A DNA stretch of 64,000 nt, from the IMG/VR virus record IMGVR_UViG_3300002835_000097, positions 24,058-88,057 of that record; one strand, given 5' to 3'. Source of the stretch: a virus (Duplodnaviria > Caudoviricetes). The stretch's first letter is position 1. Every line of letters begins with the position of its first letter. Of the stretch, positions 17,437 to 42,200 are shown piece by piece. Below the pieces are notes generated by a model. It was given only the letters and a program-made list of their open reading frames with translations. It searched no databases and was not told the origin of the DNA. The position numbers were made by a program, and so were the translations under genes.

Positions 17437-20400
17437 ATGGCAACTTTTAATCTAACAGCACAGTTGAATCTTAAAGGTCCAACAAACGTTAAGCAAATAG
17501 CTGCTCAAATTAAAAAAGATCTTGGCGCTCTTAATGCAAATGTACAATTTAAACTTGATCCGGCAGCATCAAAAAATGTTGCAGCATTATCGTCTTCTTT
17601 AAAAGTTTTGAATGCTAATTTTGCCTCAACTGTCAAATCAGCCAATGCTGCCACATCAGCAATAAAGGCTTTTGGTAATAGCGTAAATTCTGTTAAAATT
17701 AACAATGTCCCTCAACAAATTAATCAAACTTCATCAGCAATTGCTAAATTAAATAAAGTATCCTCATCAACATCTGGAGGATTGCAAAATGCCGCAACAG
17801 AGATGCAGGAATTCGGCAAGCAAGCTGGTTTAGCAGTTAGAAGATTCGTTGCATTTAGTGCTGTTACAAGTGTTATATATGGAGTAACAAATAGTATAAA
17901 TAATGGTATACAGGCTTTTATTGATTATGATAAAGAGCTTGTAAAATTACAACAGGTTACTGGAGAATCTGCTGCCGGATTATCCAAACTACAATCTCAA
18001 ATTAGTAATTTAGCTGTAGAATTTGGTGTTAGTTCTAAAGAGCTAACTCAAGTAGCATCAACATTAGCTCAGGCTGGTTTAAGTGCCAGAGAAACTGAGA
18101 AAGCTTTAAAAGCCTTAGCACTTAGTAGTTTAGCTCCGTCATTTGATAATATGAATGAGACTGTGGAAGGTAGTATTGCTATAATGAGACAGTTTGGTAT
18201 TAGTGCTGCTGATTTGGAGGCATCATTAGGTGCGGTTAATACCGTGGCAGCAAGGTTCGCAGTAGAATCTAGTGACATCATTACCGCCGTGCAAAGAACA
18301 GGTAGCGTATTCGCTACTGCGAGTAAAGGGGTAAGCGAAGGAAAAGACGCTTTAAATGAATTTATTTCGGTATTTACCAGTGTTAGAGCAACTACCCGTG
18401 AAAGCGCTGAAACTATTGCTACTGGATTACGAACAATATTTACTCGTATCCAAAGAGGAACAACGATAGACGCCCTAAAAGAGTTTGGTGTTAACTTAAC
18501 AGATGCTGAGGGTAAGTTCGTTGGAGCGTATAAGGCTGTCGAATTGTTAAGTAAAGGATTAGGTAAAATAGACCCTAGAAGTTTGGACTTTTCAAGAATA
18601 GTTGAAGAACTTGGTGGATTTAGACAAATTGGTAAAGTTATTCCATTAATTCAACAATTTAGTGTGGCTCAACAGGCGTTAAAAGTTGCTCAACAAGGAC
18701 AAGGTTCGCTAGCTAAAGATGCAGCAACAGCACAATTAAGTTTAGCTAATCAAATAAGTAAAGTTCGTGAAGAATTTTTCTCACTATTTCGTGAAATAGG
18801 TCAATCCAAAGGATTTCAAAGTTTAATCAGAGGAGCGTTGTCTCTAACTAGTGGTTTGATAAAAGTAGCAGATGCTGTTAAAGGAATTCTACCAGCATTA
18901 GCAGTACTTGCAGCATTTAAGGGATTTAAAGCATTAACAGAATTTACTACAGGATTTGCCACAGGAGTTAAAAGAGGACCAGATGGTAAAGCTAATGGCG
19001 GAGTTATAAGAAAATTCGCACGAGGTGGTGTTGTTCCTGGTACTGGTAGTGGAGATACTGTACCAGCAATGTTAGAGCCAGGAGAATTTGTTATACGTAA
19101 AAAAGCTGTTGAAACTATTGGTACTGATAGTCTTCATAGTATGAATAAGTATGGAAGTGGTGGAAGTATACGAGCAGGAAAATCAAATAGAAGAAAAAGA
19201 TTTGGGGGTGGAGGTAAACTATATGACGATATTGATGTTCAAGAATATTCTAAGTCTAACAAGCAGTATGCTGGTAGGCTCAAAGCTTATGATGCAGATA
19301 GTATAAATTTATTGGTTGATCCAACACAAACACTAGTTAATAAACGTTTTAAAAAACTAACTGGCGATTTAATTTATCCTAGTGAAAAAGGTAAATTTAA
19401 AGTCACATCCAGACTTGAAGGAATAGATGCTTTTGAAATTAAAGCATCAAAAAAAGAAAGAGAAGAGTATGCTAGTCAAGGAGGAAAAGGTCCGGCATAT
19501 GCTAGTAATAGAGAGAAAGGCAAAAGAGCCAAAGATATAACTATAGATTTTATAAGTGGACTTGGTAAAGAAAAATTAGCTAAAATTTTTATCGACGCTA
19601 ATAAAGTAGATTACTATGGCAGACCAATGGCGGAAATTGGTGCTCTTAATAAAAAATTAGTAGGAGAGAATGTTGCAAAATATAGTGGAACTAAAAAAGG
19701 TCAAGACATTATTCAAGCAGATAAACTAGCAAATAGACTAGAGATAATGAAGAAAAATTCAGGATTCGGCAATACTAATAAGTCATCATGGGATAGGGTT
19801 ATTAAAGATGATTATATGTTTAACTATATGCCAGCAGGATCTAAGGATAGGTTTAACAGTTCAGGGAATATAATACAAGACGACTCCCGGCCATTAAAAA
19901 CTATCTCTGATATTGGTTTTATTAAGAAAATGACAGAGACTAAAGGATTGGCTAAGTTCATGGTTGGAGGAAAAGTAGAAAGAAAAATTGGAGTAGTTGA
20001 TACGGACGTACTAAGAGATGAGGCTAATGCGGCGATAGTTAGGCCAGCAATGGAAAAGCTTGGAATAACTGATGTTAGTGACTATACAACAAAACTTGGA
20101 GAATTGGCAGGCAATGCTAGAAAAAGTGGATCGCTATCTAGGTTTAGAGCTATTGCTGGAGCTGCTGGAAGTGGAAAAAGCAGTTTAGCAACCGGAAAGG
20201 GAGCTAATGATGATGCTACTTTAAGAAAAACAATTCGCTCTCAAATATTAACGCCTGAAGATATAGACAAAGTTAATGAAGTTATAGTATTAACATCGAC
20301 AGCTAGTCAGACTAAATTAGATGCTTATTTAAAAGATGTTGATAGAGCATATGTATTAAGCTCTAATAGCAGAGAGGAACAAGATAGAGTTAGGTCAAAT

Positions 20401-23400
20401 AGAGAGAGCAGAGACATTACAGGAGAAGGATTGTATGGTCGTAAACCAGGAACCACAAGAGCAGCTGATATTGATTTTGGTCTGGAAGAAACCATATTAC
20501 GAGATGAACTTGGCAAAAGAGCCACAGTATTAGGAAGAAAAAAAGATAGTTTCGGTTTAAGACGTAAAAGAGAAAGCGAACTACCAGAAATAGTTCAGGC
20601 TGGTGGATTTTATATGGGTGGTTTTGCCCCACCAACAAGAGGCCATAGAGGAGCTTTAGATACTTTATTAGAAAACATGTTAGCAAAGAACCCAAACTCT
20701 TCTTTAGAAGATATTCTTGTTAGTGTTGCTCCTGACCTTCCAATGATTGTTGATAAAGAAGGCATAGACCACGCTGCACGATATGGTATTTTCCCATCAG
20801 ACATAAGAACCTTATTTAGCCAAATGAATTTTGGAAATGCTATGATTAGCACTCAAAGCCAGACGGGTGGTGGTTTACCAAAATTTATGGAAGTTACTGA
20901 TGCTGGAGATAGAAGAAAATTCGCCAGATTAAAAGGAGCCATGGCAATAACTTCTGGTAAAGACGATAAAACATTGGGCAAATACCAAAGAGCAGGAATA
21001 GACGTTACAGATATTCCTAGAATAGAAGATATTAGTGCTACTGCAGTTAGAGACGCATTATTTAATGGTGACGATAAAACACTTACTAGTTTAATGAATC
21101 CTGATATAGCATCAATATTAATGGGCAATAGAGCACAATTACGTAATCGTAGCACTATGGTTCCTATGCTCATCGAAGAAATACAAAAGTTTGTTGATCA
21201 AGATAAAGTACGATCCAATGCTGAGGTTACAGAAATATTATCAAATGCTCCTGGTGGTCCATATGGTAATGTTAGTGCTGATCTAAAGAAAAATTATCCA
21301 GAAATAGCTGAGCAAGTTAAGCAGATAAGAGACAAAAGAGATAGAGTATCTAAAGGAGCATTCGGCTATAGAGCATTTAATATAATAAGCGCCCTATCTG
21401 CCAAATATCCAGAAACTTATGGGTTAGACCCATCAAGAAAATCCGCCGTATCTGCGCAACCATCAGACATAACCAGAGAGGCCATAGCAGCACAAATTTC
21501 AGAACAGATGGCTGGTGAGTTTGGTGGAGTTCCAACAGCTATGCCTTCTGGACTAGAAGAGGCAATACTAAAAAATGTAGAAAAAGCCACCCAGGTCAAA
21601 AAGTCTTCTGGAATATTACCAACACAAGGATCAGAGATTCTAAAAAGATTTGGAACTCAAAGATTACCAAATGATCCAAGTTTTGGCCCATTCTCAGGAA
21701 AAACAGTAAGAGATACAGCCGAAGGAGGAAAATTAAAATACTGGAATTCTGCTTTTAGACCAGAAACAAAAGAAGATAAGCTCGCTTACTATATTGCAAC
21801 AAGAGACTATCTAATAGACAAATTTAATGAATCACAAGGAATTCAAAAGGCTACAGCTCTAGAAGATACAACTAATGCTGTGTTATCTTCCAAACAATTA
21901 GGATTAGTTGGATTAAATCCGCTAGGATATACTGGATTATTGGGTCCAGAGACTTGGAATCTTGGAGTCGATCCGTCTGGCCAAGAAAGATCAATAGACG
22001 CTTCAATAGTACAAAGAGGACTACCAACAGAATTCCAAAACGTTATTGATTATCTTAGTGGACAAACAGCAGAAATAGTACAAGGAGCATCAAAGCTTCT
22101 TGGTATTACTCCTAAAGAATTAACTAAAAAACAAAGAGAAACATTAGGACAAGGAAATATTGAGGGTGCTTTACTAGAACAAATTTTTGGATCAGCAGAT
22201 GCCACAATATTAGACGATGCATTAAGAACAAGACCAATTGACTTTCCAATGGGTATCGGACCTAAAGCAGCAAAAATATTTGGTATCGATCCTGATATTC
22301 CAACAGAAGTTAAAAGAACAATAGATAGTAATAGTAGAGGTAAAGCTGTTGAAGAATTTCAAAAATATTTTAGACAACAATACGGCATTCCTGATCCAGA
22401 AAAAGTAACAGCTTTTGCTGACGGCGGAGAAGTATATACTCCACAACAACTAGTCTCATTAGCCAAATACAGAACAGGACCATTTCCTGGTGGTGGAACT
22501 GATAGCGAATTTATAAATAGATATTTAGAAGATAATGATTCTTTCATGGAATATCTTAAAACTTTCCATGCTGATCCTCCAAAGGCGTATGATGCCACAA
22601 AGAATGCTGCAAAAGATTTATTGGAAATGTTTACTAGCCAAGAATCAATGAGTGGCTCAAAGCGTTCTGGTAAATTATATTCCACTGTTGCTGGTGGTAA
22701 ATTAAAAACCATTTTAACTCAAATTAATAATCCTTTAAACTCTAATAAAGATATTTCTGATGCTATTGGTAAAAACTTTAATTTAAATGGCTCATTATTA
22801 TCAACTAGTGAATCCCCGGATACAGCTAGTGTATTTCAGCCAGAAAATGGTTCTAGTGCAATGTTGAGTATCATTAGAAATAAAAATATTCCATCTATTG
22901 ATGTTGATAAGGCAATATTTGATACCTCCACAGAAGAAGATATTATAAAAGCATTATCAAAATATATAGACCCTGTCTCTGGAAAAAGCGGAGCAGATTT
23001 TCTAAGCAGAAGTCGATCAGCAACACGAATAGAAAAAGAATTCATTCTCCCACAAACTTCAAAATTTAGAATAGATGATATTGATAGAATATTTAGTAAA
23101 GATCAAGAAGATAAATTATTAGGTGGAAATATTCGTCATATAGAAGGAATGAAAGTTCAGCAGTTTAAAGATGGAGGAATGGCATTTGGTAAAGAAAATG
23201 AATTTGAAAAAATAAGACAAAAAATATTAAATCAATATCCAGATATTAATTTTAGAATTTCCAGACGAAAGAATGGTTTTGGATACAATATATTAGGCGG
23301 ACTAAAACAAGAAAGTAGTAACATTGGTAATTATGCAGAATTTAAGCAAGCTGGTAATCTTTCTAAAATACAAGAAGTTGCCGATAATATGGCATCCTCT

Positions 23401-26400
23401 CTGCTATATGAATATGGTCCAAATATAGATCCGTCTCTTCTAAAGAAGATGCAGAATAAAAGAAAATTTGCAAATGGTGGGTCTGCGCAGGATACTGTAC
23501 CAGCATTATTAACTCCTGGTGAATTTGTTGTTAATAAAAAAGCAGCAGAAAAAATAGGATATGGCAAGTTAGAAAAATTAAATAAAGCAGATAAAATACA
23601 AGGATACAATAAAGGAGGAATTGTAGGAGGAGTACAAAGATTTGCTTTAGGTGGAGGTGTAGATGGCTTTCTTTCTGGATTACAAAGCATAGCAAGTAAT
23701 TTAGGAAGAACACAAAATATTACTAATAATCGCCCAAATTCAATAGATACTAGTACAATAGCTGTAGACCCATCTATTCTGCAAGATACAAAAGCATTTG
23801 TGGACACTCTTTATGATGCCGGAGACGGCATGAAGTATTTAAATCGTTTATTAAATGAAAATAAACAATTATCTATACAAGCAGTATTAGAAGCTGGTAA
23901 TAAAGATCTAGAAAGATTAAAAATTAGTGGAGCATCTATTGATAAAATTATAGAAGCTGAAAAGGCATTGTCTAATATTAGAAATAAAGGACTTATTGAT
24001 GTTACTAATCGTCAATTTTTAGAGTCTGGATTTAAAGAAAGTTCAGTTGGTAAAAAATTAGGATCAGGAGCTACGCAACAAAAAATATTATCTTTAGCAG
24101 AAAAAGAAGAGCGACGATTAATAGATAAAAGAAAAAAGGCTATAGAAGCTGATATAGTATCATCATCCAAACAACCAATATCTCCATCAGACTTAGCTGA
24201 TCAGGTCGCCCAAGCTATATCTTCTGAATTAAATGATATTAAAACGCAAGCATTTTCTAGAGCTACAGCAGCGGCTACAGGAACAAAAACTTCTACTGGC
24301 ATAAAAGGGAATATAACAGAAAGTGAATTAAAAAATCTAAATATAACTGGAAATGATATTCAAAAATATATTTCTGATTCTATGAGAGATAGAAAAACTC
24401 TCAGACAAATGGATCAGCAGTTAATAGCTATGAGAATGGAAGAGTATAAGAATGCTGGAACTGTTAGAGGTATTAGCGTTGCTTCTGCAGAGGAAGCTAA
24501 AAAATTAGCACAGGAAGAAGTTAGCAAACGAAGAGAAGCTATAAATGATCTGGCAAAAATGAGAGGAGAACGAGGTGTTGGAGCTGCTGGATTAATGGAT
24601 ACTAGAAATAGTCCTATTAATCGAGCATTTAGAGAAAGATACTTTACTGGAGATCTAGGAAAAAGTATGCAGAGAGGATTGGGCGACATTGGATTAGCGG
24701 CAGGATTAGTTGCTGGACAAGGAGACAACATAGCATCAGCATTATTTGATACTAAAACCGATAAAGGCAAAATACAAGCGGCAGATACAGGCGCAAGAAT
24801 CGATAAAGCAGCAACAACACTGTCTGTTGGTCTAACAACATCAGCACAATTAGCTGCTATAAATCCTATGTTAGGAGCTGCTGCTGCTATAGGCACAGCA
24901 CTGTATGCTGGCGCTGATGCTGTATATGATTTCTCAGGCACTGCCAAAAAAGCAGCTCAAGAAATGGCAAGAGCTTTATTAAATGATAAATTATCTGCTG
25001 CTAGTGATAATCTATCAAATGCTTTGGAAAAATTAAGCAGAGATGCTAATAACGTTGAACTTAGAGCAAAAACAGCATCAACCATTAAAAGCTTAACAGA
25101 TACTGCCCTGGAAAGCACAGCAGATACAGGAATAACAGGAAAGAATAAAGCAGAGACGGAGCGTAATTGGTCAGATTTTGGCAGAGGAATATTGTTGGCC
25201 ATTGGAGAAATTGGAGTTGGTATGAATCCATTCTACCAAGACATGGACCCTGTAACGCTTGCAAAATCCAAACAAGGCTCTTATGGCATGGAAGAAGCAA
25301 GAGTTGATGCTCAAAAAGAAGCAGAAAATTTTCAAAAAATAGCTAATGCTGGATATACCGATCTAGAAAGGCTATATGCAAAAGGATTCACTAATGATCA
25401 AATTATGGATCCTACTAATGAAGCTGGAAATATAGTTAGAGAATCTATAAAAGGCATGATTCTAGCTGATTCTGAAAAACGAGCTTTATATATGGCTGCC
25501 GGACCACAAGGTAAAGAAGCTATTGCTGGTACAGCAGCGCAACAAGCATTTTTAGCTAATGATGAATTAGCAAAAGCTTCTCAAGAAGCTGCAAAATTAG
25601 CAAGAGCTATGGAAATTGCTGATAAAGCAGGACGAAGATTAGCAGCAAGTTTTGATAAAATAGCAGATATAGTAAATGAATCTGTTAATAGAATATCATT
25701 TGAGTCTGATGCTAGAGTAGAAGCGGCAAACCAATATGCATCATCATTACGTGGAGAGTCCAGAGGTTCTGGTCCAAAACTAAGAGAAAGAAATATTTTA
25801 GAAAATCCCAATGCATATTCTGAAGCAGAATTTACTGCAGCACTACAAAGTGCCACAGCAGGATTAAGTGACGGACTTAGAAAACAACTGATTGGCGGTG
25901 CTCAATTACAACAAAACATACCAAAAAATATAACAAAAAGCATAGCAACTGTTTTAGACAAGAGCGCCGGCTCAGGAGTAGATGAACTTAAAAAAGCAGC
26001 AGTTGATACTGCTAAAAATGAAATAGAAAATAATGCTAATTTATCTAGACAACAAAAAGATGAATTAAAACAAATAGCTACGGCCAGGATAGAAACTATA
26101 GCTAAAAAAGCTAAAGATAACAATGCCGATAATACTACGCAAGTATCAGAATTTAGAAAAGAACTAGAAGAAGGTACTAGTGTTTTAGGTGATTTTGGTA
26201 AAAAATTATTAGATTCTATAAAAGGTCTATCATCATTCAAAGAAGGAGCATTAGATAAATTTGCTAAGGGCTTGAATGAAGCTAGCAAAGCAGCTAAAGA
26301 ATCTCAAAACTATTTTAGAAGATCAAGAGAAATCTCTAACGAAGGCAATATGAACCTAAGAGAAGTCTTGAGTGGATACGGTGAAACATATGATGAACAA

Positions 26401-29400
26401 TTTAATAGAATTATGGGTGATGTTGGTGGTTTAGCAGGAGGTGAAACAACTGTTCAGGGAATTAAAAATAGACAAATAATGCTTGCTGAGCAAAGAGATA
26501 CTCTACAGAATCAACAAAATACCCTTACAGATAAAGACGCTTTGCGTAACAATGTTGAACAGCTTAATAAATTAGATGATCAATTAAGAGATAATAGAGA
26601 AGCATTAGATATGCTTGCTAATAGTACAGAATTAGTAGATAAAGCTTTCAACAACTTGCAAAATACTGCAGAATTACAGAATAATCGACAAAATTTTGTT
26701 AATCAATTATTAACTAATACGCCAGAAGAAGCAGATAAACTTAATCAAAGTTTTATTAGATTACAACGAAATCTTTCTGGAGGACTCAATAGTGCATATA
26801 ATCAAAGAGACGCTAGAAAAGCATTTAATGAAACATTATTTAAGACCGGAAATGTAAGAGAAGCAACTCGCGCCGGAAATACTGTTCTTGCTAATCAAAG
26901 AAAAGAAACACTATCATTGATGCAGGATCCCGGATTCAGAGCTGCTCAAGAATTACAGATAAGAAATCAATATGCTCAGAACCGAGGAAGACCAGGAGTA
27001 GATGCTGATCAAGCAGTAGCAGAATATTTTCAAAAACAGCAATTACAAGTAACCAAACAAATGGCGATAGAAAGTGGAATGATAAATAATCCACTTGTTC
27101 AACAGTCATTGGCTGTCCTAGAGGATCGCAAAGCAGATCCTGCTATGCAACAGGCTGCTGAAAGATATTTAGAAGCTGTTGGATTAAGAGCCGATGCTAC
27201 AAAAGCACAAGGAGAACTGGCTTTATTAGAATCACAATCCATACTAAAAAATTCTAATGATAATTTACGTATTAGTATTGATGATTTAAGAGCAAGCATC
27301 GAAGGAAATCTGAATAATGCTAATATAGGTATGGACGCTGCTGGTAACAGAATAGTTAATCCTGGGGTGGCTGTTCCTGCTCCTGCTGCGGCCAGATCAT
27401 CTGGAGGATTAATATATGCTAGTAGTGGAAAGCTTATTGATTTTAAGCCTAAAGGTACCGACACTGTTCCTGCCATGTTAAGTCCTGGCGAATTTGTTAT
27501 CAATTCTAAGTCTACACAAAAACATTTACCATTATTGAAAGCTATTAATAGTGGAAATTATAGTAAGGGTGGAGTGGTTTATTTACAAAAGGGTGGTAAA
27601 GCAGGAACTAATATTGACGAAGATATAGATCTAAATAAAGATGGAACAATTACAGATGAAGAACGACAGATTTATCAACGTCGAAAAGAATTATATCTAA
27701 CAAGATCATTTGGACAAATGGATTATAGACAAGCATATTTTACTAGACCATTCGGATATAGTAAAGGAGGGCCAGTAAATTATTTAGCCAATGGTGGCGA
27801 AGTACAAAAAAGAAAAGAAGAAAGAATAGATGCTCAAAAAGAATCATGGATGATGTCAGAAGCAGCCGGAAGAAGACCTGATGAGGTAGTTTCTAGAACA
27901 TCATCTAGTTGGGCAGAATCTCAGGTAGGTAGTAATAAATGGCAAAGTATGACAGAAGAACAAAGACAATCAGAAACTAAAAAATATGAACCAGAATTTC
28001 AAAACAGATGGGATAATTATAATAATAGACAGAATGACGCACAACTCAGAAGTGCTAACGATGCAGGATATGGCAGTATAAAGGAGGATCCTAACTCTGG
28101 TATTGTTGGGGTTAATTTTTATAATGAAGAAAAGAAAAGAGCTAAAGAAAGATTTGAAAAAGCTAGTGCGGCTGAAGCTGAAACGGAAGCATCAAATAAT
28201 CAAATGACTCAAAGCTCTATGGAGCAACCAGCTCCAGTAGCAGTTCCTCTACCCGATATGACAAAAATACCTTGGGGCAGAGGAGCGGCAATAAAGATTG
28301 GACCAACACAAGAAACTATCAATGAGAGAAAAAAAATTAAATCTGAAGAGTCACGAAGACGATCATTATGGCTTAAAGGAAGCAAAGGAATAAGCTCAGA
28401 AGAAGAAACAGAATATGCAACTTTAAAATCTAATCAAATAAAAAGAGAGGTAGGCCCGTATACTGTAGAAAAAGATCGTAATATTTCTTCTTTAGTAAAT
28501 AGTGCCTATCGTAAAGGTGCTCAGTCTAATGAGATAACATCAGAAGAAAGATCAGCCCTAAAAGAGTTAGGCTCTGATCCTAGAAATAGAGGAAGTTTAC
28601 GAGCCCTATCATTTAGTGCTGCGTTGCCTCCAATAACTAGTAACGGAGGAAAACCCGACCCTATTGATCCAGCAACTGTCGCTAGAATAAATCAGAGTGC
28701 AAGACCTGACATAGCCGATCCTGCAGTCTCTTCAGGTGTTCAAACAGGAAATCCTTCAGAAGGAATGGTTAATCGTACAGCTAATAATAGAGCTTATGAG
28801 GCTAATCAGGCTAAAAAGAGAAAAATGGCTGGATTAGCATTAGGATTGTCAACAGAGGCTGATCAAGAAACAGCAGACCTTTTGGAACAAATACTTTTTG
28901 GTGGACCTATAGAGAGACCTATAGAGAATAATCCAGCAAGAGAAAAAAGACAAGCAGCTTTAACTACAAATATTATAAACCAAGCCTTAAATAAAAAAAC
29001 ACCAGATTATTCCATAGCCACCCCAACATCTGGTGATCAAACCACTAAAACTGAACGACTAACCAAAGAATTTATTGGATCTTCAGCAAGCAGACGAGCA
29101 TTTAATGCAGTTGCTAATAATGGCGGAACATTAGCAGAAGCCAATGCAGCAGCTAAAAATGCCATACAATCACAGGCTGAAAGATCAAAAAGCATAGTGG
29201 AAAAAAGAAAAGACGAAGGTAAAAAAGTAATAGACTATTATGAACAAAGACTAAATGAAGCCAGAGCAGACAACGACGGAGATGGACGACCAGACTTTTC
29301 AAACGAAGAAATAGACAAGAGAAAAAGAGAAAGAGATAGCGCAAGAGTTAATTTTTCTGGTAACATGAATCCTATTGGTCGTCAGCCAGAATCATATTAC

Positions 29401-32289
29401 TCATCTAGAAAAAATGCTGAAAGATGGGGAGCTAAACAATATACTAGTGCTGAGGACTACTTTGCTGCTCAAGGAGCAAGACAAGATTATCTTGACAGAC
29501 AAGCAAGAATAAGAAAAGAAAATGAGGCATCTGCTGAAGGATTTAAGGCAGGGGTTTCCCATGTTGTTAATATGACGGAACCACAATATGCTGCGGCATT
29601 TAGATCCACATATGGAGATACAGCAGCCGATGCTCTTGGTAGAGCTACTAGAATGGATCCATCAGTAGGGCGTAATAATGAAAATACAAGAATAAAAGAC
29701 GAAGAGAAAAAAACACGAGAAACATTCGATAGGGCTAAAAATTATGAGGGGCCACTAGGAAATGCTGCTTATGTTGGAGATACTTTAACACAAGCTATTG
29801 TTGGAGCATTACCACAAGATCGTGCTCGTAATGATAGTCAAGACATGAAAGACATTAATGCTCGTCGTGATGCTTATAGAGAAAGAGAAAAACTAGCTGG
29901 AAATAAAGATTTTAGTTTTGAAAATAGTAGTAATTCTTTTTATAGAGGTCTTGGAACTACAGGCAGATACATTGGAGATCTTACTGCAGTAGCTACTAGT
30001 CCCTTTAGAATTATTGGCGGAGGTGGGGGAGCATTGTTGGGTGGGGCATCATTAGGCATTGCAGAAACTCAAAAGGTGCTTGGTTATGACGATACTATGG
30101 CTAGAGCTTTTGGCGATAAGGCATTAAGTCAAGCGTCTGATTCTGTTGGTGCTGGTATTTCAGATATTAATAGACTAGCTGAACAAACAGGCAGATTAGC
30201 CACCTATGCCGGTATTCCTTTTGGATTAGAAGCAGATCCTTTACTTAAAAATAATTCAGCAGGAATGATATTCGACGAAAGAAATGTTTCTGAAGCTGGA
30301 CCTTTAGGGCCCGTAGTTAGGGCCGCTAATGTGATTAGAGATGTTACTGCTGATTCGGTTATGCCATTACCAATTCCTGGAGCTGGTAAAGTTAGAAGCG
30401 TTGCTGGCAGATTGGATGATATGGACAAAGCTGCAGAAAAAGCCTATAAAGTTTCGCAAAGAGCCTACGAAGCAGCACAAAGATCATCCATAGCCAGTGC
30501 CACAGAATCTACTATTCCTAAAATGATCCAAAATTATGTAGAAAAATTGCCAATACCTTCAGAGGCTACAGGTTCTATAGGGTCCATGGGACGGTTAAGC
30601 AGAGGGGAAGCTTTATCTAGATCATTAAAAGATTTGAGAGAAGTAAAAGTGCCGTCATTACGCAGTGACCCTATGGATATGTCTAAACTTGGTAAATCAG
30701 CAAAACAATCACAACCAATATTAGATCCTTTACAAGAAGCTGCCAAATCAGCTGCTAAGCCCAGAATTACGGCAGCAGAATATACAAAACGTGCAGAAGA
30801 AGCAAGATCTGCTGCCAGAGCCAGCAAGCCAAGAGTTACTGCTGAAGAATTTATGGCCAGAACAAAACCAGATGCAACAACATTACCAATCAAACGACCA
30901 CTTCCAGAAGTTATAGATGTTACTGATACCAAAACACTAAGACAAGTTCAAGAGAATTTAGCTAGTGATTTGGCTGATTATGCTACTCCAGCAAAAAGAG
31001 ATCAGTTCTTGTCAGAATTTGTTGAAAAGTCTACACCGCAATCGGTATCTGTTGATCCTAAAGCACTAGCTGAGGCCAAAAAGAAAGTTGCTAAGACCAT
31101 AGGTCCGGTAAAAGCCCCAGACGGCATGGTTACTTCAGGTAACAAAATGATATTTAAGGACGCTAAGACAAAAACATCAGTAGTACAGCATGAATTAGCC
31201 CACTCTTTTCAAACTAAAACTGCTGGAATGAAGGGTGATCCTTTTGGAGGTAAAAAAATACAGCTATCAGGACTAATGAAGGAAATCGAGTCATTTGTTG
31301 ATGATCCGAAGGGATTAGTTGCTATAACAGGAGGCAAAGGATATTCTGCAAGTCAAATCAAAAAAGCCCCATATGAACTACTAAGCACCTTGATGCAACA
31401 TATGGAAAAGGTAAAGGGTAATAAAAGAGCAGAAAATATTTTAAAAAAATTAATGAAATTCCATGGATATAGTAAGGGAGGATTAGTATATGCTAATAAT
31501 GGAGCTTTTATTAATGCTAACAATGGAACTACAGATGATACTCCTGCAATGTTAACTAAAGGAGAATTTGTAATAAATAGACAAGCTACTAAAAAACATA
31601 TGCCACTTCTCAATGCTATTAATAGTGGTCATTTAAATAGAGGCGGAATTGTTAATTATTTGGCCAATGGAGGTATAGTCGGTCCACAATATCTTGCTGC
31701 TGGTGGTCGATCAATGGCTAGTATATCAAATTCTAATATATTACCAGAACTATTAAATAAATTATCAAATACTGGCATGAATTCTTCTGGTGGAGCCTCA
31801 CAACTAGCACCTCTTTCTAATGTTGTACAGACACTTAAACAAACCGCATCCTCTGCCGGTGGTGTATCTAATAATGTTAGTATAGATACGGCTAATATAT
31901 CATCATCCATACAGGATGCTGTTACAAATGCTATTGGTCAATTTAATGAATATACAGAGCAAATTGGGGCTAATTTTACTGAACAGTTTGGTGCTGCACA
32001 AAAAAGTTTGTCATCATCTATCAACACATTCCAAACAGCCACCGCTCAATTTGGAGAACATGCAAATGCTATACCAACGTCATTATCTGCTAATGTTACG
32101 CAAACAACATCACTTCACCATATTGGTTTAGAATCTATAAAAGGTAATATGGAAAAAAATATATACGACAATACTTCTGTTAGTTCAAAAAATATTGCCC
32201 AAGACACCGTCATGCAATATGATAAAACTGTTTTTGAAGGAGGCATGAATAGTGCCGCTAAACCAAGTATTATGGGACGACCATCATAA
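17437..32289 (+). CDS. Giant tape measure protein (4950 aa) with embedded enzymatic cargo domains
   Basis: TP901-type TMP core near the N-terminus (YDKELVKLQQVTG..LAVEFGVSSKELTQVASTLAQAG..ESAETIATGLRTIFTRI); long Ala/Lys/Glu/Gln helical tracts; canonical position after tube and chaperone genes; four DTVPAML-GEFV-like modules. Confidence 0.9.
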   Translation: MATFNLTAQLNLKGPTNVKQIAAQIKKDLGALNANVQFKLDPAASKNVAALSSSLKVLNANFASTVKSANAATSAIKAFGNSVNSVKINNVPQQINQTSSAIAKLNKVSSSTSGGLQNAATEMQEFGKQAGLAVRRFVAFSAVTSVIYGVTNSINNGIQAFIDYDKELVKLQQVTGESAAGLSKLQSQISNLAVEFGVSSKELTQVASTLAQAGLSARETEKALKALALSSLAPSFDNMNETVEGSIAIMRQFGISAADLEASLGAVNTVAARFAVESSDIITAVQRTGSVFATASKGVSEGKDALNEFISVFTSVRATTRESAETIATGLRTIFTRIQRGTTIDALKEFGVNLTDAEGKFVGAYKAVELLSKGLGKIDPRSLDFSRIVEELGGFRQIGKVIPLIQQFSVAQQALKVAQQGQGSLAKDAATAQLSLANQISKVREEFFSLFREIGQSKGFQSLIRGALSLTSGLIKVADAVKGILPALAVLAAFKGFKALTEFTTGFATGVKRGPDGKANGGVIRKFARGGVVPGTGSGDTVPAMLEPGEFVIRKKAVETIGTDSLHSMNKYGSGGSIRAGKSNRRKRFGGGGKLYDDIDVQEYSKSNKQYAGRLKAYDADSINLLVDPTQTLVNKRFKKLTGDLIYPSEKGKFKVTSRLEGIDAFEIKASKKEREEYASQGGKGPAYASNREKGKRAKDITIDFISGLGKEKLAKIFIDANKVDYYGRPMAEIGALNKKLVGENVAKYSGTKKGQDIIQADKLANRLEIMKKNSGFGNTNKSSWDRVIKDDYMFNYMPAGSKDRFNSSGNIIQDDSRPLKTISDIGFIKKMTETKGLAKFMVGGKVERKIGVVDTDVLRDEANAAIVRPAMEKLGITDVSDYTTKLGELAGNARKSGSLSRFRAIAGAAGSGKSSLATGKGANDDATLRKTIRSQILTPEDIDKVNEVIVLTSTASQTKLDAYLKDVDRAYVLSSNSREEQDRVRSNRESRDITGEGLYGRKPGTTRAADIDFGLEETILRDELGKRATVLGRKKDSFGLRRKRESELPEIVQAGGFYMGGFAPPTRGHRGALDTLLENMLAKNPNSSLEDILVSVAPDLPMIVDKEGIDHAARYGIFPSDIRTLFSQMNFGNAMISTQSQTGGGLPKFMEVTDAGDRRKFARLKGAMAITSGKDDKTLGKYQRAGIDVTDIPRIEDISATAVRDALFNGDDKTLTSLMNPDIASILMGNRAQLRNRSTMVPMLIEEIQKFVDQDKVRSNAEVTEILSNAPGGPYGNVSADLKKNYPEIAEQVKQIRDKRDRVSKGAFGYRAFNIISALSAKYPETYGLDPSRKSAVSAQPSDITREAIAAQISEQMAGEFGGVPTAMPSGLEEAILKNVEKATQVKKSSGILPTQGSEILKRFGTQRLPNDPSFGPFSGKTVRDTAEGGKLKYWNSAFRPETKEDKLAYYIATRDYLIDKFNESQGIQKATALEDTTNAVLSSKQLGLVGLNPLGYTGLLGPETWNLGVDPSGQERSIDASIVQRGLPTEFQNVIDYLSGQTAEIVQGASKLLGITPKELTKKQRETLGQGNIEGALLEQIFGSADATILDDALRTRPIDFPMGIGPKAAKIFGIDPDIPTEVKRTIDSNSRGKAVEEFQKYFRQQYGIPDPEKVTAFADGGEVYTPQQLVSLAKYRTGPFPGGGTDSEFINRYLEDNDSFMEYLKTFHADPPKAYDATKNAAKDLLEMFTSQESMSGSKRSGKLYSTVAGGKLKTILTQINNPLNSNKDISDAIGKNFNLNGSLLSTSESPDTASVFQPENGSSAMLSIIRNKNIPSIDVDKAIFDTSTEEDIIKALSKYIDPVSGKSGADFLSRSRSATRIEKEFILPQTSKFRIDDIDRIFSKDQEDKLLGGNIRHIEGMKVQQFKDGGMAFGKENEFEKIRQKILNQYPDINFRISRRKNGFGYNILGGLKQESSNIGNYAEFKQAGNLSKIQEVADNMASSLLYEYGPNIDPSLLKKMQNKRKFANGGSAQDTVPALLTPGEFVVNKKAAEKIGYGKLEKLNKADKIQGYNKGGIVGGVQRFALGGGVDGFLSGLQSIASNLGRTQNITNNRPNSIDTSTIAVDPSILQDTKAFVDTLYDAGDGMKYLNRLLNENKQLSIQAVLEAGNKDLERLKISGASIDKIIEAEKALSNIRNKGLIDVTNRQFLESGFKESSVGKKLGSGATQQKILSLAEKEERRLIDKRKKAIEADIVSSSKQPISPSDLADQVAQAISSELNDIKTQAFSRATAAATGTKTSTGIKGNITESELKNLNITGNDIQKYISDSMRDRKTLRQMDQQLIAMRMEEYKNAGTVRGISVASAEEAKKLAQEEVSKRREAINDLAKMRGERGVGAAGLMDTRNSPINRAFRERYFTGDLGKSMQRGLGDIGLAAGLVAGQGDNIASALFDTKTDKGKIQAADTGARIDKAATTLSVGLTTSAQLAAINPMLGAAAAIGTALYAGADAVYDFSGTAKKAAQEMARALLNDKLSAASDNLSNALEKLSRDANNVELRAKTASTIKSLTDTALESTADTGITGKNKAETERNWSDFGRGILLAIGEIGVGMNPFYQDMDPVTLAKSKQGSYGMEEARVDAQKEAENFQKIANAGYTDLERLYAKGFTNDQIMDPTNEAGNIVRESIKGMILADSEKRALYMAAGPQGKEAIAGTAAQQAFLANDELAKASQEAAKLARAMEIADKAGRRLAASFDKIADIVNESVNRISFESDARVEAANQYASSLRGESRGSGPKLRERNILENPNAYSEAEFTAALQSATAGLSDGLRKQLIGGAQLQQNIPKNITKSIATVLDKSAGSGVDELKKAAVDTAKNEIENNANLSRQQKDELKQIATARIETIAKKAKDNNADNTTQVSEFRKELEEGTSVLGDFGKKLLDSIKGLSSFKEGALDKFAKGLNEASKAAKESQNYFRRSREISNEGNMNLREVLSGYGETYDEQFNRIMGDVGGLAGGETTVQGIKNRQIMLAEQRDTLQNQQNTLTDKDALRNNVEQLNKLDDQLRDNREALDMLANSTELVDKAFNNLQNTAELQNNRQNFVNQLLTNTPEEADKLNQSFIRLQRNLSGGLNSAYNQRDARKAFNETLFKTGNVREATRAGNTVLANQRKETLSLMQDPGFRAAQELQIRNQYAQNRGRPGVDADQAVAEYFQKQQLQVTKQMAIESGMINNPLVQQSLAVLEDRKADPAMQQAAERYLEAVGLRADATKAQGELALLESQSILKNSNDNLRISIDDLRASIEGNLNNANIGMDAAGNRIVNPGVAVPAPAAARSSGGLIYASSGKLIDFKPKGTDTVPAMLSPGEFVINSKSTQKHLPLLKAINSGNYSKGGVVYLQKGGKAGTNIDEDIDLNKDGTITDEERQIYQRRKELYLTRSFGQMDYRQAYFTRPFGYSKGGPVNYLANGGEVQKRKEERIDAQKESWMMSEAAGRRPDEVVSRTSSSWAESQVGSNKWQSMTEEQRQSETKKYEPEFQNRWDNYNNRQNDAQLRSANDAGYGSIKEDPNSGIVGVNFYNEEKKRAKERFEKASAAEAETEASNNQMTQSSMEQPAPVAVPLPDMTKIPWGRGAAIKIGPTQETINERKKIKSEESRRRSLWLKGSKGISSEEETEYATLKSNQIKREVGPYTVEKDRNISSLVNSAYRKGAQSNEITSEERSALKELGSDPRNRGSLRALSFSAALPPITSNGGKPDPIDPATVARINQSARPDIADPAVSSGVQTGNPSEGMVNRTANNRAYEANQAKKRKMAGLALGLSTEADQETADLLEQILFGGPIERPIENNPAREKRQAALTTNIINQALNKKTPDYSIATPTSGDQTTKTERLTKEFIGSSASRRAFNAVANNGGTLAEANAAAKNAIQSQAERSKSIVEKRKDEGKKVIDYYEQRLNEARADNDGDGRPDFSNEEIDKRKRERDSARVNFSGNMNPIGRQPESYYSSRKNAERWGAKQYTSAEDYFAAQGARQDYLDRQARIRKENEASAEGFKAGVSHVVNMTEPQYAAAFRSTYGDTAADALGRATRMDPSVGRNNENTRIKDEEKKTRETFDRAKNYEGPLGNAAYVGDTLTQAIVGALPQDRARNDSQDMKDINARRDAYREREKLAGNKDFSFENSSNSFYRGLGTTGRYIGDLTAVATSPFRIIGGGGGALLGGASLGIAETQKVLGYDDTMARAFGDKALSQASDSVGAGISDINRLAEQTGRLATYAGIPFGLEADPLLKNNSAGMIFDERNVSEAGPLGPVVRAANVIRDVTADSVMPLPIPGAGKVRSVAGRLDDMDKAAEKAYKVSQRAYEAAQRSSIASATESTIPKMIQNYVEKLPIPSEATGSIGSMGRLSRGEALSRSLKDLREVKVPSLRSDPMDMSKLGKSAKQSQPILDPLQEAAKSAAKPRITAAEYTKRAEEARSAARASKPRVTAEEFMARTKPDATTLPIKRPLPEVIDVTDTKTLRQVQENLASDLADYATPAKRDQFLSEFVEKSTPQSVSVDPKALAEAKKKVAKTIGPVKAPDGMVTSGNKMIFKDAKTKTSVVQHELAHSFQTKTAGMKGDPFGGKKIQLSGLMKEIESFVDDPKGLVAITGGKGYSASQIKKAPYELLSTLMQHMEKVKGNKRAENILKKLMKFHGYSKGGLVYANNGAFINANNGTTDDTPAMLTKGEFVINRQATKKHMPLLNAINSGHLNRGGIVNYLANGGIVGPQYLAAGGRSMASISNSNILPELLNKLSNTGMNSSGGASQLAPLSNVVQTLKQTASSAGGVSNNVSIDTANISSSIQDAVTNAIGQFNEYTEQIGANFTEQFGAAQKSLSSSINTFQTATAQFGEHANAIPTSLSANVTQTTSLHHIGLESIKGNMEKNIYDNTSVSSKNIAQDTVMQYDKTVFEGGMNSAAKPSIMGRPS

Positions 32290-39220: not shown

Positions 39221-42200
39221 ATGTCAACTATCCAAGCAATAAATGTTAAAGTAAGTGGATTTGATCCTGCTACAAAATATAATTTTATTTTTAAGAATAA
39301 TGGTGGAAACTGGCCTGTAAGAATATCTCCATTGTCTGGTGTGTTTTTCCCCGACAGTGTTAAATCATATGTTTATTTTTGTTCGAATTCTGGAGAATGT
39401 CCAGAATCTGACCCTAATGTATTTTATAATGTTCCAGAAAATAGTCTTACCGCACCTGGTTTAGATCTAGATAATAAAAGTTTATATACTATTTTAGATT
39501 TAGAAATTAGAGATAATGATTCTGATGAACTTCTATATACTCATCCGTGCATAGTGCAGTGTGATCAATGTATTCCATCATCATTATCTTTATCTTTTAA
39601 TAATGGAGATGGCGACCTATCATTAACAAGCACTGATGGAAATTCAAAAACATTTAATGTTAAATGTGAAGGTTTAATACCAAATCAAGAATATACTTAT
39701 GTTTTGAATGGAGGAGGAGGTAATTGGCCTTTAAAAGTAACGCCCAGATCAGGAATCATTACCACCTCATCTTCTGATTTTACCGTTAATGGACTACTAT
39801 CTTTTTGTCCATCAACAGGAGCTTGTCCAAGCACAGATCCGTCTATAATTAATTATCAGAATATACAAAATAGAAGATTTACTGAAGATCCTTATTCTAT
39901 TATAGATGTATCGTTAACTCCAAATGATAGTACATTTCAAAATAAAGTTGCAGGATCATTCTCTGCAACCTGTGTAGATTGTATACCAGCTATACAGATA
40001 CTATCTCCCAACTTTGTTAATATAGGAAGTAATCATAGTAATAATGAGTTTGAAGTAACAATCAATAATCTTGTTATTGGCGAACAGTATAATTATTCAT
40101 TTGCTGGGCTTGATGGCAACTGGCCATTAATACTATCTCCCCAATCTGGTAGCATAATTGCTACTTCAGACTCTATGAGATTACCGGTCGTTGCAACCTT
40201 TTGTACTGCTACAGGATTATGTCCAAGTGGCAGTGCTGGAATTATGCCATATACAAATCTAAGATCATCAAGTGTTGCTTTAAATTCTATAAAAAAACAA
40301 TCCAGGTTCAAAATGTCTTTGAACCAAAATGCCTATGCTACTCCTGTTGCTTATAGTAATGATATTGTTGCGGTATGTAACGATTGTCTTCCATTACTAA
40401 GAGCCAGACTACCATTGAATACTACATTATCATTTGGAGATGGAAACTATACAGATTTTAATCTTGAAATAGATAATATGGTTCCTGGAATCGAGTATCA
40501 ATATGTATTTAAAAATATTGATAGTAATTGGCCAGCAATTATCAATCCATTAAGCGGAAGTATCATAAGAAACAATGTTGGCAGCACAACTTATACTGTC
40601 CCAGTTTCTGTTACGCTATGTCAATCCACAGGACTTTGTCCAAATGGCTGCGCTAATGTTCTAACGTATACAGCAGCCCCAAACTGCAACAATAAAATCG
40701 CAAGATTCAAAGCAGAAGTTACTCCTATTGGATACGATATTCCGTCAGTAAATAGTAATGCTTATATTGTTACTTGTGATACTTGTATTCCTCAGCCATC
40801 TGCTACTATACCAAATGTGATCGTGGGAGATGATAATGAGAGCTCATTTAATGTTGTTATTAATAATCTTTCACCCACTTCAGAATATAGATATAAATTT
40901 ATAAGTTTAGACTCTAATTGGCCCGTTAGCATTAATCCTATAAGTGGAGTAATTACTTCAGTTAGCGATCACACACTATCTGTCTCAACTTCATTTTGCC
41001 AAACCACAGGAGTTTGCCCCAACGGATCTCCAAATATACTACCATATATGGCAGGATCTAATAAACAATTTAATTTTGGATCTTTAAATAAATTTGCAAA
41101 AATTAGACTAGAAATAGATCCAGTATTGCCATTAAATAATGATTTAGCAACAATATATAGCAATGAGGCTATGATAAAATGCAGTGGCTGCATTCCTGCT
41201 CCAGTTATTGAAGTTCCAAAAGATGTTACAGTAGGGTCCAGCAATACTGCTACCATAAATATGGTTGGAACTGATTTATCGCCAAATACATCATATAAAT
41301 ATAAAGTATTATCTATTGATAGTAATTGGCCTACTGTTATTAATCCAATGAGTGGTACTATAGTAAATAGTGCAACATGTGATATTGCTTTGTCAATAGC
41401 CTTTTGTGCATCAACAGGGATTTGTCCAAATGGTAATAAAAATATTCTACCATATAACGCAGTAACATCATATAATCAATTTACTTTAGGTTCATTACAG
41501 AAGTCTAGTAAATTCCAGGTTGAATTTGATCCTATTGATGATGATTTGCCAACAGTGTATAGTAACGAATCGTTAATTAGATGTTCTGGTTGTATACCTG
41601 ATCCAGAGGTGGTGCTACCAGATACTATAGTTCTTAGCGATATAAATCCCAAAAGATTTCCTATATCTGGCGTTAATTTATTGGAGGGAGTAGAGTATAA
41701 ATATAGATTTATTGGCCTAGATAGCAATTGGCCAACGATATTGAATCCAATGAGTGGTAATATTATCAGTAGCACAAGCTTTGATATACCTGTAGAGGTT
41801 TCTTTTTGTGCAGGAACCGGCGTTTGCCAAACTGGATCAAAGAATGTTTTAAATTATACACTAGCAAATGATAGTCAATATAGACTTGCGTCGTTATCCA
41901 AAGTTACCAAAGTAAAATTAGAATTAGTTCCAAATTTACCAGGACTACAAACGGTATATAGTAATGAAACAACAATCATATGCTCTGGTTGCGTAAATCC
42001 TTTATCTGCTGAGTTCAAAACATCGGTCATTAATAATCCTTCGAAAGCTAATCCAAATAATAATATTAAATTAAATTTAAATGGTTTGGTCCCAGGAGTT
42101 GAATATTCTTATGTTCTAGAGTCTGTTAAGAATAACTGGCCTATGATAGTTAATCCGATTAGTGGAACATTAGTATCACCTAATACCTCTGGTGAAGCTA

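Follow-up and report, generated by a model that had tools for sequence, protein, structure and literature searches.

Why should a phage tape measure protein (TMP) be interrupted several times by copies of one short motif? The question is raised by a 4,950-amino acid (aa) protein encoded in the IMG/VR virus record IMGVR_UViG_3300002835_000097 (Duplodnaviria; Caudoviricetes), a linear sequence of 88,057 bases with a CheckV completeness of 59%. We analyzed bases 24058 to 88057 of this record, a stretch of 64,000 nucleotides that is called the window below and to which all nucleotide positions refer. An initial annotation of the same DNA had described recurrent [FYL]xxGG linkers and four D(T/D)(V/T)PA(M/L)LxxGEFV modules in the protein, each cargo block being opened and closed by one module, and had proposed that the GG sites are cleavage or export signals or recombination anchors for cassette exchange and that the flanking module would mark cargo for packaging or processing. 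We find that four modules (M1 to M4) partition the chain in the order N-core, M1, cargo slot 1, M2, ruler block B, M3, cargo slot 2, M4, and C-terminal tail (Table 1). The explanation that best fits the data as a whole, to which we assign a probability of roughly 60%, is that the modules are multiplied joints of the type found in lambda gpH, and that they would keep the cargo separable and be the places where the chain is cut at tail maturation.

Four Modules in a Giant Tape Measure Protein

The open reading frame (ORF) at positions 17437 to 32289 makes up 17% of the contig and is predicted to encode a TMP of the TP901/PF10145 type. PF10145 (PhageMin_Tail) matches aa 188 to 380 with an E value of 1e-21 and 78 to 83 bits, compared with a Pfam curated cutoff of 33.2, and aa 17 to 510 are matched by 14 PHROG families, 11 of which are TMPs.

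All 13 linkers of the initial annotation are present, exact and in frame: FARGG at 19015, YGSGG at 19150, FGGGG at 19201, FMVGG at 19957, FADGG at 22414, FKDGG at 23164, FANGG at 23467, YNKGG at 23605, FALGG at 23641, YSKGG at 27559, 27757, and 31468, and LANGG at 27784. The four cores begin at 19054, 23491, 27460, and 31534 within this single ORF, and both of the DNA strings quoted for the likeness of M3 and M4 occur twice exactly (27541/31615 and 27778/31654), a count that none of 100 shuffles reached. When the protein was compared with itself, the four modules proved to be its sole internal repeats, M3 and M4 sharing 55% identity over 71 aa (E 1e-21) and M1 and M2 48% over 60 aa. The remark that the linkers are often preceded by K or R is true of 6 of the 13 sites, in a protein in which these two residues make up 13.6% of the total.

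Six further [FYL]xxGG matches were found (aa 1058, 1683, 3383, 4733, 4742, and 4753), one of which, FYMGG1058, belongs to the HIGH motif of a nucleotidyltransferase. The resulting total of 19 compares with 4.8 ± 2.2 in 2000 shuffles (maximum, 14). Since 14 of the 19 matches sit in modules, the "linkers" and the "modules" are for the most part the same thing; most of the linkers once taken for separate elements are integral module parts, and several solo linkers are boundaries in their own right.

Each module is ~70 to 140 aa long and consists of one or two F/Y-A-x-G-G units, a D-T-V-P-A-M-L-x-P-G-E-F-V core, a short helix, and one to three Y-x-x-G-G units. This order, which is that of the lambda gpH-type joint, is present in all four copies. 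Among 74 aligned copies, G20, G40, V43, and N60 are invariant, and D31, V33, P34, A35, L37, P39, E41, L56, G67, and G68 are conserved in at least 90%. The unit at the module edge has about nine residues (GG-x-V/I-x-K/R-F/Y-A-x), of which the solo linkers are shorter copies; 1,004 unique solo linkers have in common a unit of approximately nine residues, GG-x-V/I-Q-K/R-F-A-x-GG-x-V. Insertions have duplicated units on either side at two scales: slot 2 lies between M3 and M4, and an EF-hand-like insert in M3 lies between two YSKGG units. The latter insert has 51 aa (27604 to 27756) and contains the loop D-L-N-K-D-G-T-I-T-D-E-E (27628 to 27663), read by eye; EF-hand Pfam matches (PF13202 and PF00036) are precomputed for some relatives.

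Glycine makes up 13 to 21% of the modules, compared with 7 to 9% elsewhere. An AlphaFold2 (AF2) monomer model of the module has a predicted local distance difference test (pLDDT) value of 60 and a single short helix. By this model the module appears to be non-globular with no autonomous fold, and the idea of an autonomous domain was dropped. A homotrimer prediction with three copies scored 0.01 against a mark of 0.42, which weighs neither for nor against any reading. No Pfam family was matched by more than one of the 74 copies, leaving the module without a Pfam family.

Cargo Is Gained, Lost, and Exchanged at the Joints

Relatives were collected with the N-terminal 620 aa as query; of the 1,411 candidates that were scored (those sharing most words), 885 proteins reached E ≤ 1e-3. 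The 120 relatives listed have 2,797 to 7,794 aa, lie on contigs of up to 248 kb, and in this search share 54 to 96% identity in the N-core. The hosts probably belong to Bacteroidota, one relative bearing the label of a Sphingobacteriia MAG. When the blocks were compared one by one, the N-core occurred in all 120 relatives, at 57 to 98% identity, and segment B2 in 115, block B being the most conserved part after the N-core. The units of slot 1 range from A5, in 4 relatives, to A2, the commonest cargo of this slot, in 70 (A1, A3, and A4 are given in Table 1), and those of slot 2 occur in 4 (C1), 3 (C2), and 7 (C3) relatives. Proline amounts to 1.4% in the N-core and 1.6% in block B versus 4.2 to 5.0% in the cargo. 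Block B being the most conserved ruler part, the modules therefore frame two cargo slots, not three: the stretch from M2 to M3 is conserved ruler rather than cargo.

The depth of the alignment of the 120 relatives changes sharply at the joints. It drops from 112 to 37 at aa 576 to 601, the end of M1, climbs from 25 to 69 at aa 826 to 851 (FMVGG841), drops from 58 to 14 at aa 1651 to 1700 (FADGG1660), climbs from 11 to between 59 and 74 at aa 2001 (FANGG2011 of M2), drops from 115 to 20 at aa 3376 to 3426 (M3), and climbs from 36 to 74 at aa 4651 to 4676, the start of M4.

Individual relatives are mosaics. In protein P0015, identity is 74% in the N-core, 99% in A2, 95% in A3, and 38% in B2; in P0067 it is 37% in A2 and 92% in both A3 and A4. 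The DNA of locus L001 is 89% identical over aa 1 to 1657, 90% over aa 1660 to 1915, and 68 to 70% in block B. In locus L003, DNA identity is 74% up to aa 850, with a 1.27-kb insertion exactly at FMVGG, 88% over aa 843 to 1657, and 89% from aa 3441, which is the second YSKGG of M3 and the place where identity jumps in both L003 and L004. In L023, DNA identity ends at aa 594 and restarts at aa 2019. Seven DNA breakpoints from five loci lie at FADGG (aa 1654 to 1665) and eight at M2 (aa 2004 to 2019).

Homology and DNA identity thus step at the same places, as had been proposed for cassette boundaries and recombination junctions. These comparisons show the modules and their edge units as boundaries where related phages add, drop, or exchange cargo, and we consider a cassette-boundary role of the modules very probable. 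Free shuffling of cargo among slots is not supported; among 82 A2 cases, A-type cargo follows exactly one module with just 4 exceptions. The module copies likewise keep their places: a copy's best match in another protein occupies the corresponding position for 120 of the 121 "first," 105 of the 110 "before B," 94 of the 111 "after B," and 108 of the 118 "last" copies, an agreement made trivial in part by close relatives in the set. Judged by these matches, the copies are orthologous by position and not homogenized within a protein.

Several of the counts have to be read with their limits, and some speak against a general boundary role of the motif. Among the internal homology endpoints of 21 full-length queries, 5,649 of 12,832 (44%) fall within 15 aa of a module, in zones that hold 10.3% of the residues, an enrichment that is partly expected because modules are conserved islands where alignments stop. 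DNA breakpoint clusters, drawn from matches of at least 78% identity, lie no more than 8 aa from [FYL]xxGG in 8 of 10 cases, compared with 6.8% expected (binomial P 2e-8); three of these eight (aa 2069 to 2076, 3379, and 2004 to 2019) are edges of module-sized matches and are near the motif by construction, and in the last of them only L023 starts a long block. The two remaining clusters (aa 1375 to 1387 and 3323) are off the motif, and alignment depth also drops from 69 to 42 at aa 1301 to 1351, where there is no linker motif. Across the family, 11.2% of the 1,874 clusters of internal cargo breakpoints have a [FYW]xxGG within 8 aa, versus 2.0% of random positions, and a plain GG is found at 28% versus 12%. 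As the linker is near only ~11 to 17% of family-wide internal breakpoints, it marks a minority of the inner cargo boundaries. Breakpoints are shared among related proteins, and the counts therefore do not represent independent events. Outside the modules, the five [FYL]xxGG matches compare with 3.8 ± 2.0 expected (P = 0.32), which is no enrichment by count.

The Module Is Widespread among Tape Measure Proteins

A hidden Markov model (HMM) of the module, built from 483 unique copies and run on the relatives, found at least two modules in all 121 proteins, four (47 proteins) or five (40 proteins) being commonest; the number ranges from 2 to 10 across 244 family proteins. At E ≤ 1e-3, a profile of the window's four copies matched 14,547 protein clusters among 1.84 billion representatives, and 842 of these passed E ≤ 1e-30. 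In the best 150 of those clusters, the proteins have 1,522 to 7,872 aa and 3 to 11 matched stretches each, and 102 of the 123 new proteins in this list possess the N-core as well. Three IMG/VR loci (L032, L034, and L039) encode proteins of ~2,000 to 2,270 aa with three modules, a slot 1 of ~240 to 370 aa, and no slot 2, and look like a minimal form of the module architecture.

None of the cultured phages in the collection has the window's N-core at more than ~26% identity over most of its length. The module itself is common in TMPs, as had been noted from the outset: a tblastn search (E 1e-3) matched 134 cultured-phage records, and among the 60 of these that were listed, the matched gene is annotated as TMP, or as endolysin in 6 records, with 3 records unannotated. 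Among PHROGs, it matches 16 families, of which 11 are TMPs. The joint module is thus found in phages of unrelated hosts, from lambda to actinophages and cyanophages. In the 3,404-aa TMP of Nodularia phage vB_NpeS-2AV2 (KU230356; L042, 8983 to 19197), two module cores lie side by side at aa 999 to 1126, about one third along the chain, flanked by YAFGG986 and YASGG1195; this cultured cyanophage could stand in for cutting tests.

Enzyme-Like Cargo

A2 is predicted to combine two folds, that of a zeta-toxin-type P-loop kinase and that of an NMN/phosphopantetheine adenylyltransferase. Its AF2 model has a pLDDT of 80 and a predicted TM-score (pTM) of 0.75, the first six residues, FMVGGK, being disordered (pLDDT < 50). 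Foldseek matched the model to zeta toxin 6eph with a probability of 0.97 and to NadM 2qjo and PPAT with a probability of 1.00 (TM-score on target, ~0.6). Profile searches against PDB sequences agree weakly (MJ0951, 9e-5; NMNAT, 0.007), and the adenylyltransferase half displays the motifs GGFAPPTRGH and ISATAVR. One idea is that A2 has a role in nucleotide cofactor metabolism at the moment of infection. A locus scan with A2 alone gave five close loci.

A4 appears to be ADP-ribosyltransferase-like, with a Pfam match to ADPrib_exo_Tox (E 0.0085, below the curated cutoff) and with ADP-ribosyltransferase and ModB clusters of the atlas scoring 0.88 to 0.90. A1 may be SNase-like by the atlas only, its nearest clusters being SNase (score, 0.90); Pfam and PDB sequence searches with A1 gave no match, and PDB sequence searches with A4-A5 and C3 gave nothing useful. 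In slot 2, the sole lead is a zincin-like HELAH motif (aa 4585) that lies ~80 aa upstream of M4, in a region matched by Peptidase_M90 and eCIS_core at E ~0.1. HExxH occurs in 92 of the 244 family proteins versus ~0.004 expected per protein, often as xLYHE[ML]THQL.

Cut Joint, Plain Hinge, or Docking Site

Under the explanation that we favor, the four modules would be position-specific copies of a joint that ordinary TMPs carry once. In lambda gpH, this joint lies between a hydrophobic glycine-rich stretch and the hub-binding C-terminal helix, and it would have been multiplied in the present lineage. The module profile matches gpH at residues 740 to 784 (E 0.056, among PDB TMP sequences) and the family HMM at 752 to 805 (3e-8). 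In the gpH sequence itself, a hydrophobic glycine-rich stretch is followed by FATGG(733), GEFVF, a helix, and YATGG(778), which puts the joint at residues 733 to 785. The joint is pictured as a non-globular, glycine-hinged segment that would keep folded enzyme cargo separable from the helical ruler and, by analogy with lambda and T5, may be the place where the chain is cut in tail maturation. According to the account consulted, gpH is cut in a glycine-rich region near its C terminus, neither the site nor the protease being known (PMC12617516), and its C-terminal piece is retained at the tip of the tail (PMC12617516, PMC10721106). T5 pb2 is described as being cleaved as the tail assembles, between a hydrophobic segment and the motif of a metallopeptidase, the enzyme domain being released into the host envelope (bioRxiv 10.1101/2022.09.20.507954).

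On this view, the window's TMP would exit the tail before the DNA in several pieces, nuclease-like, kinase-adenylyltransferase, and ADP-ribosyltransferase-like enzymes among them. It contains no cysteine, nor do 217 of the 244 family proteins (overall Cys, 0.004%), which fits a chain that threads the tail unfolded or crosses an oxidizing compartment. We put the chance that the chain is cut at one joint or more, with M4 or M1 the likeliest, at slightly below even, and cutting at all four seems unlikely; cutting or export at GG is only inferred. It is tempting to go further and to see in the gpH-type joint the recognition element of a universal TMP maturation, whose multiplication would have created a polyprotein with slots for plug-in cargo. 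Nuclease-like, zeta-type kinase plus adenylyltransferase, ADP-ribosyltransferase-like, and zincin-like proteins would then be stored in the tail and injected ahead of the DNA, and this cargo would be traded by recombination; we regard this extension as doubtful.

Several points speak against cutting. The analogy draws only on two phages, and for one of them, lambda, the position of the cut has yet to be mapped. The search revealed no protease specific for Gly-Gly: the contig, which is 59% complete, lacks Prok-JAB and NlpC/P60, and a scan of 10 neighboring ORFs gave no protease. For the part of the genome covered by the contig, a gpK-like JAB or NlpC/P60 protease was accordingly rejected as the Gly-Gly cutter. 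The window's HExxH motif is subthreshold (E ~0.1), and since only 92 of the 244 family proteins have such a motif, it cannot be a universal in-cis protease, a candidate that was dropped. A self-cleaving S24/S26 fold, suggested by the likeness of D-[ST]-[VM]-P-A-M-L-x-x-G-E-x-V to G-D-S-M-x-P-T-L-x-x-G-D-x-V, was dropped as well: none of the 74 module copies matches Peptidase_S24 at E values up to 10, the Ser/Thr position and any Lys are conserved in less than 90%, and M4 has Asp at the Ser/Thr position.

The modules could instead be hinges or spacers only, flexible glycine joints that let cargo and ruler pack in the lumen and thread out in series in a protein that stays uncut. The non-globular AF2 model, the high glycine content, and the absence of cysteine, which fits the threading of an unfolded chain, all speak for such a role, as do two reported cases: P23-45 has an active RNA polymerase fused to its TMP, with no cutting mentioned in the account consulted (PMC10770324), and the globular domain of Sle1, a TMP-like injection effector, is suggested to adapt to the tube lumen and refold after ejection (PMC13277306). 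A plain hinge, however, would have no need of a near-invariant D-x-V-P-A-x-L-x-P-G-E-x-V core and helix that persist from lambda to actinophages and cyanophages, and both TMPs studied for processing, lambda gpH and T5 pb2, are cut beside the joint region as far as their accounts describe it, so that we consider a hinge without cutting unlikely.

Conservation across phages of unrelated hosts would equally suit a docking site, each module binding a chaperone, the tube lumen, or a hub protein, and the extra anchor points holding a long chain in register; short conserved motifs that fail to fold on their own are typical of peptides that need a partner. Yet in the reported cryo-electron microscopy of lambda, residues ~690 to 817 are not resolved, whereas the hub-binding helix at 818 to 849, which binds gpI, is ordered (PMC12617516, PMC10721106), and no partner was identified, which makes docking quite improbable. 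Least probable of all, and by our estimate very remote, are neutral scars, that is, copies left by the unequal recombination that brought the cargo, with only the original copy being functional. The duplicated units that flank insertions at two scales are what such a history would leave behind, but in each positional class the core residues are kept in over 100 proteins whose N-cores are as little as 54% identical, which argues for purifying selection on each copy.

Genomic Setting

Table 1. Features of the TMP gene in window coordinates
Feature	Position	Strand	Basis or remark
TMP gene	17437..32289	+	4,950 aa; PF10145 and PHROG TMP matches
N-core, aa 1-511	17437..18969	+	Conserved ruler head; hydrophobic stretch at end (~aa 483-497); Pro 1.4%
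Module 1 (M1), class "first," aa 512-601	18970..19239	+	FARGG, core DTVPAMLEPGEFV, YGSGG, FGGGG; HMM 73.6 bits
Cargo A1, SNase-like lead, aa 602-840	19240..19956	+	RLEGIDAFE at 19411-19437; in 9/120 relatives
Solo linker FMVGG, aa 841-845	19957..19971	+	Coverage step and 1.27-kb L003 insertion
Cargo A2, predicted P-loop kinase + HIGH-motif nucleotidyltransferase, aa 841-1340	19957..21456	+	AF2 model, Foldseek
Cargo A3, aa 1341-1659	21457..22413	+	In 49/120 relatives; exchanged independently of A2 in P0067
Solo linker FADGG, aa 1660-1664	22414..22428	+	DNA breakpoints and coverage step
Cargo A4, putative ADP-ribosyltransferase-like, aa 1665-1909	22429..23163	+	Weak Pfam match and atlas; in 9/120 relatives
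Solo linker FKDGG, aa 1910-1914	23164..23178	+	L001/L002 DNA identity (90%) stops at aa 1915
Cargo A5, aa 1915-2008	23179..23460	+	In 4/120 relatives
Module 2 (M2), class "before B," aa 2009-2076	23461..23664	+	FANGG, core DTVPALLTPGEFV, YNKGG, FALGG; HMM 68.4 bits
Block B, proline-poor ruler segment, aa 2077-3315	23665..27381	+	B2 in 115/120 relatives; Pro 1.6%
Module 3 (M3), class "after B," aa 3316-3456	27382..27804	+	HMM 116.8 bits; two YSKGG units
Cargo slot 2, aa 3457-4665	27805..31431	+	Mostly unique; HELAH at 31189-31203; Pro 5.0%
Module 4 (M4), class "last," aa 4666-4766	31432..31734	+	YSKGG, core DDTPAMLTKGEFV, LNRGG, LANGG, LAAGG; HMM 107 bits
C-terminal tail, aa 4767-4950 + stop	31735..32289	+	By position alone, counterpart of the hub-binding end of gpHC

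Searches with block B gave no Pfam family under E 0.04, all matches being far below the curated cutoffs, and the C-terminal tail (aa 4767 to 4950) has weak helical-repeat Pfam matches; the last segment has a median length of 140 aa in the family. The ruler parts sum to ~2,000 aa versus 4,950 aa for the whole chain. This poses a physical puzzle, for ~2,900 aa of largely globular cargo per chain, in three to six chains per tail, must fit unless the tail is ~740 nm long.

The sizeable ORFs of the window are all on the + strand. The gene after the TMP encodes a 1,172-aa FN3 protein, and downstream ORFs have FN3 and carbohydrate-binding-like domains (Pfam). A PHROG scan of 20 neighboring ORFs gave four weak matches, the upstream ORFs being without a family match, and no tube, sheath, or chaperone was identified among the neighboring ORFs scanned. 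Farther on, the ORF at 39221 to 43609 has many FN3/PhoD_N-like repeats, and that at 43625 to 46279 has an FGE-sulfatase-like domain (E 4e-8). Two more giant ORFs lie beyond the tail genes (49757 to 56263, 2,168 aa, and 56290 to 63924, 2,544 aa), the former without a match in a PHROG search.

Comparison with Known Systems

A limited literature search found no description of a repeated gpH-type joint that divides a TMP between ruler parts that stay fixed and cargo slots whose content can be exchanged. Such an arrangement suggests a general route by which tailed phages may deliver proteins alongside DNA, and the joints offer natural insertion points for engineering cargo into phage tails.

In polymorphic toxins, a short conserved motif (VENN of CdiA or the Rhs core-end motif) marks the junction and sometimes the cleavage point. 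These systems differ in having one terminal toxin with an immunity gene, and their motif is unrelated to the TMP module. A polymorphic toxin cassette was rejected for the window's gene: the cargo is internal to one ORF, the next gene encodes the FN3 protein, and there is no immunity gene. The "moraphage" was also set aside as a different lineage, in whose available account no TMP was found (PMC12619734).

TMPs with a single embedded enzyme are already known from TM4 (PMC1796659), T5 (bioRxiv 10.1101/2022.09.20.507954), and P23-45 (PMC10770324), as far as these sources were available. The TM4 TMP is reported to have an embedded peptidoglycan hydrolase motif (PMC1796659), and gp16 of mycobacteriophage Douge (1,699 aa) has two module cores, at 973 to 1010 and 1419 to 1458, in the profile comparison with PDB TMP sequences. 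These mycobacteriophage TMPs differ from the window's protein in having two copies at most and small cell wall motifs, with no family-wide cargo exchange described. P23-45 gp96 is a 5,002-aa TMP fused to the virion RNA polymerase and is described as carrying a working enzyme into the host (PMC10770324). It resembles the window's protein as a giant TMP with an enzyme and differs in that its cargo is N-terminal; the part of that account consulted mentions no repeated junction modules, no swapping, and no TMP cutting (PMC10770324).

T5 pb2 (pb2* plus pb2C), as described, is alike in the place of its cut, M1 likewise coming after a hydrophobic stretch and before enzyme cargo, and differs in having one cut and one small cargo. 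T5 does not appear in the 10 organism groups that the module tblastn search named, nor in the 60 records listed out of its 134. Lambda gpH, which matures to gpH* plus gpHC, has the same joint elements in the same order, followed by a C-terminal tail. It differs in having one copy and no enzyme cargo in 853 aa, whereas the window's TMP has four copies and two slots. Since the lambda cut site is unmapped in the accounts consulted, the module is tied to cutting there by proximity alone, and F/Y-A-x-G-G beside the GEFV core is a concrete candidate for this site.

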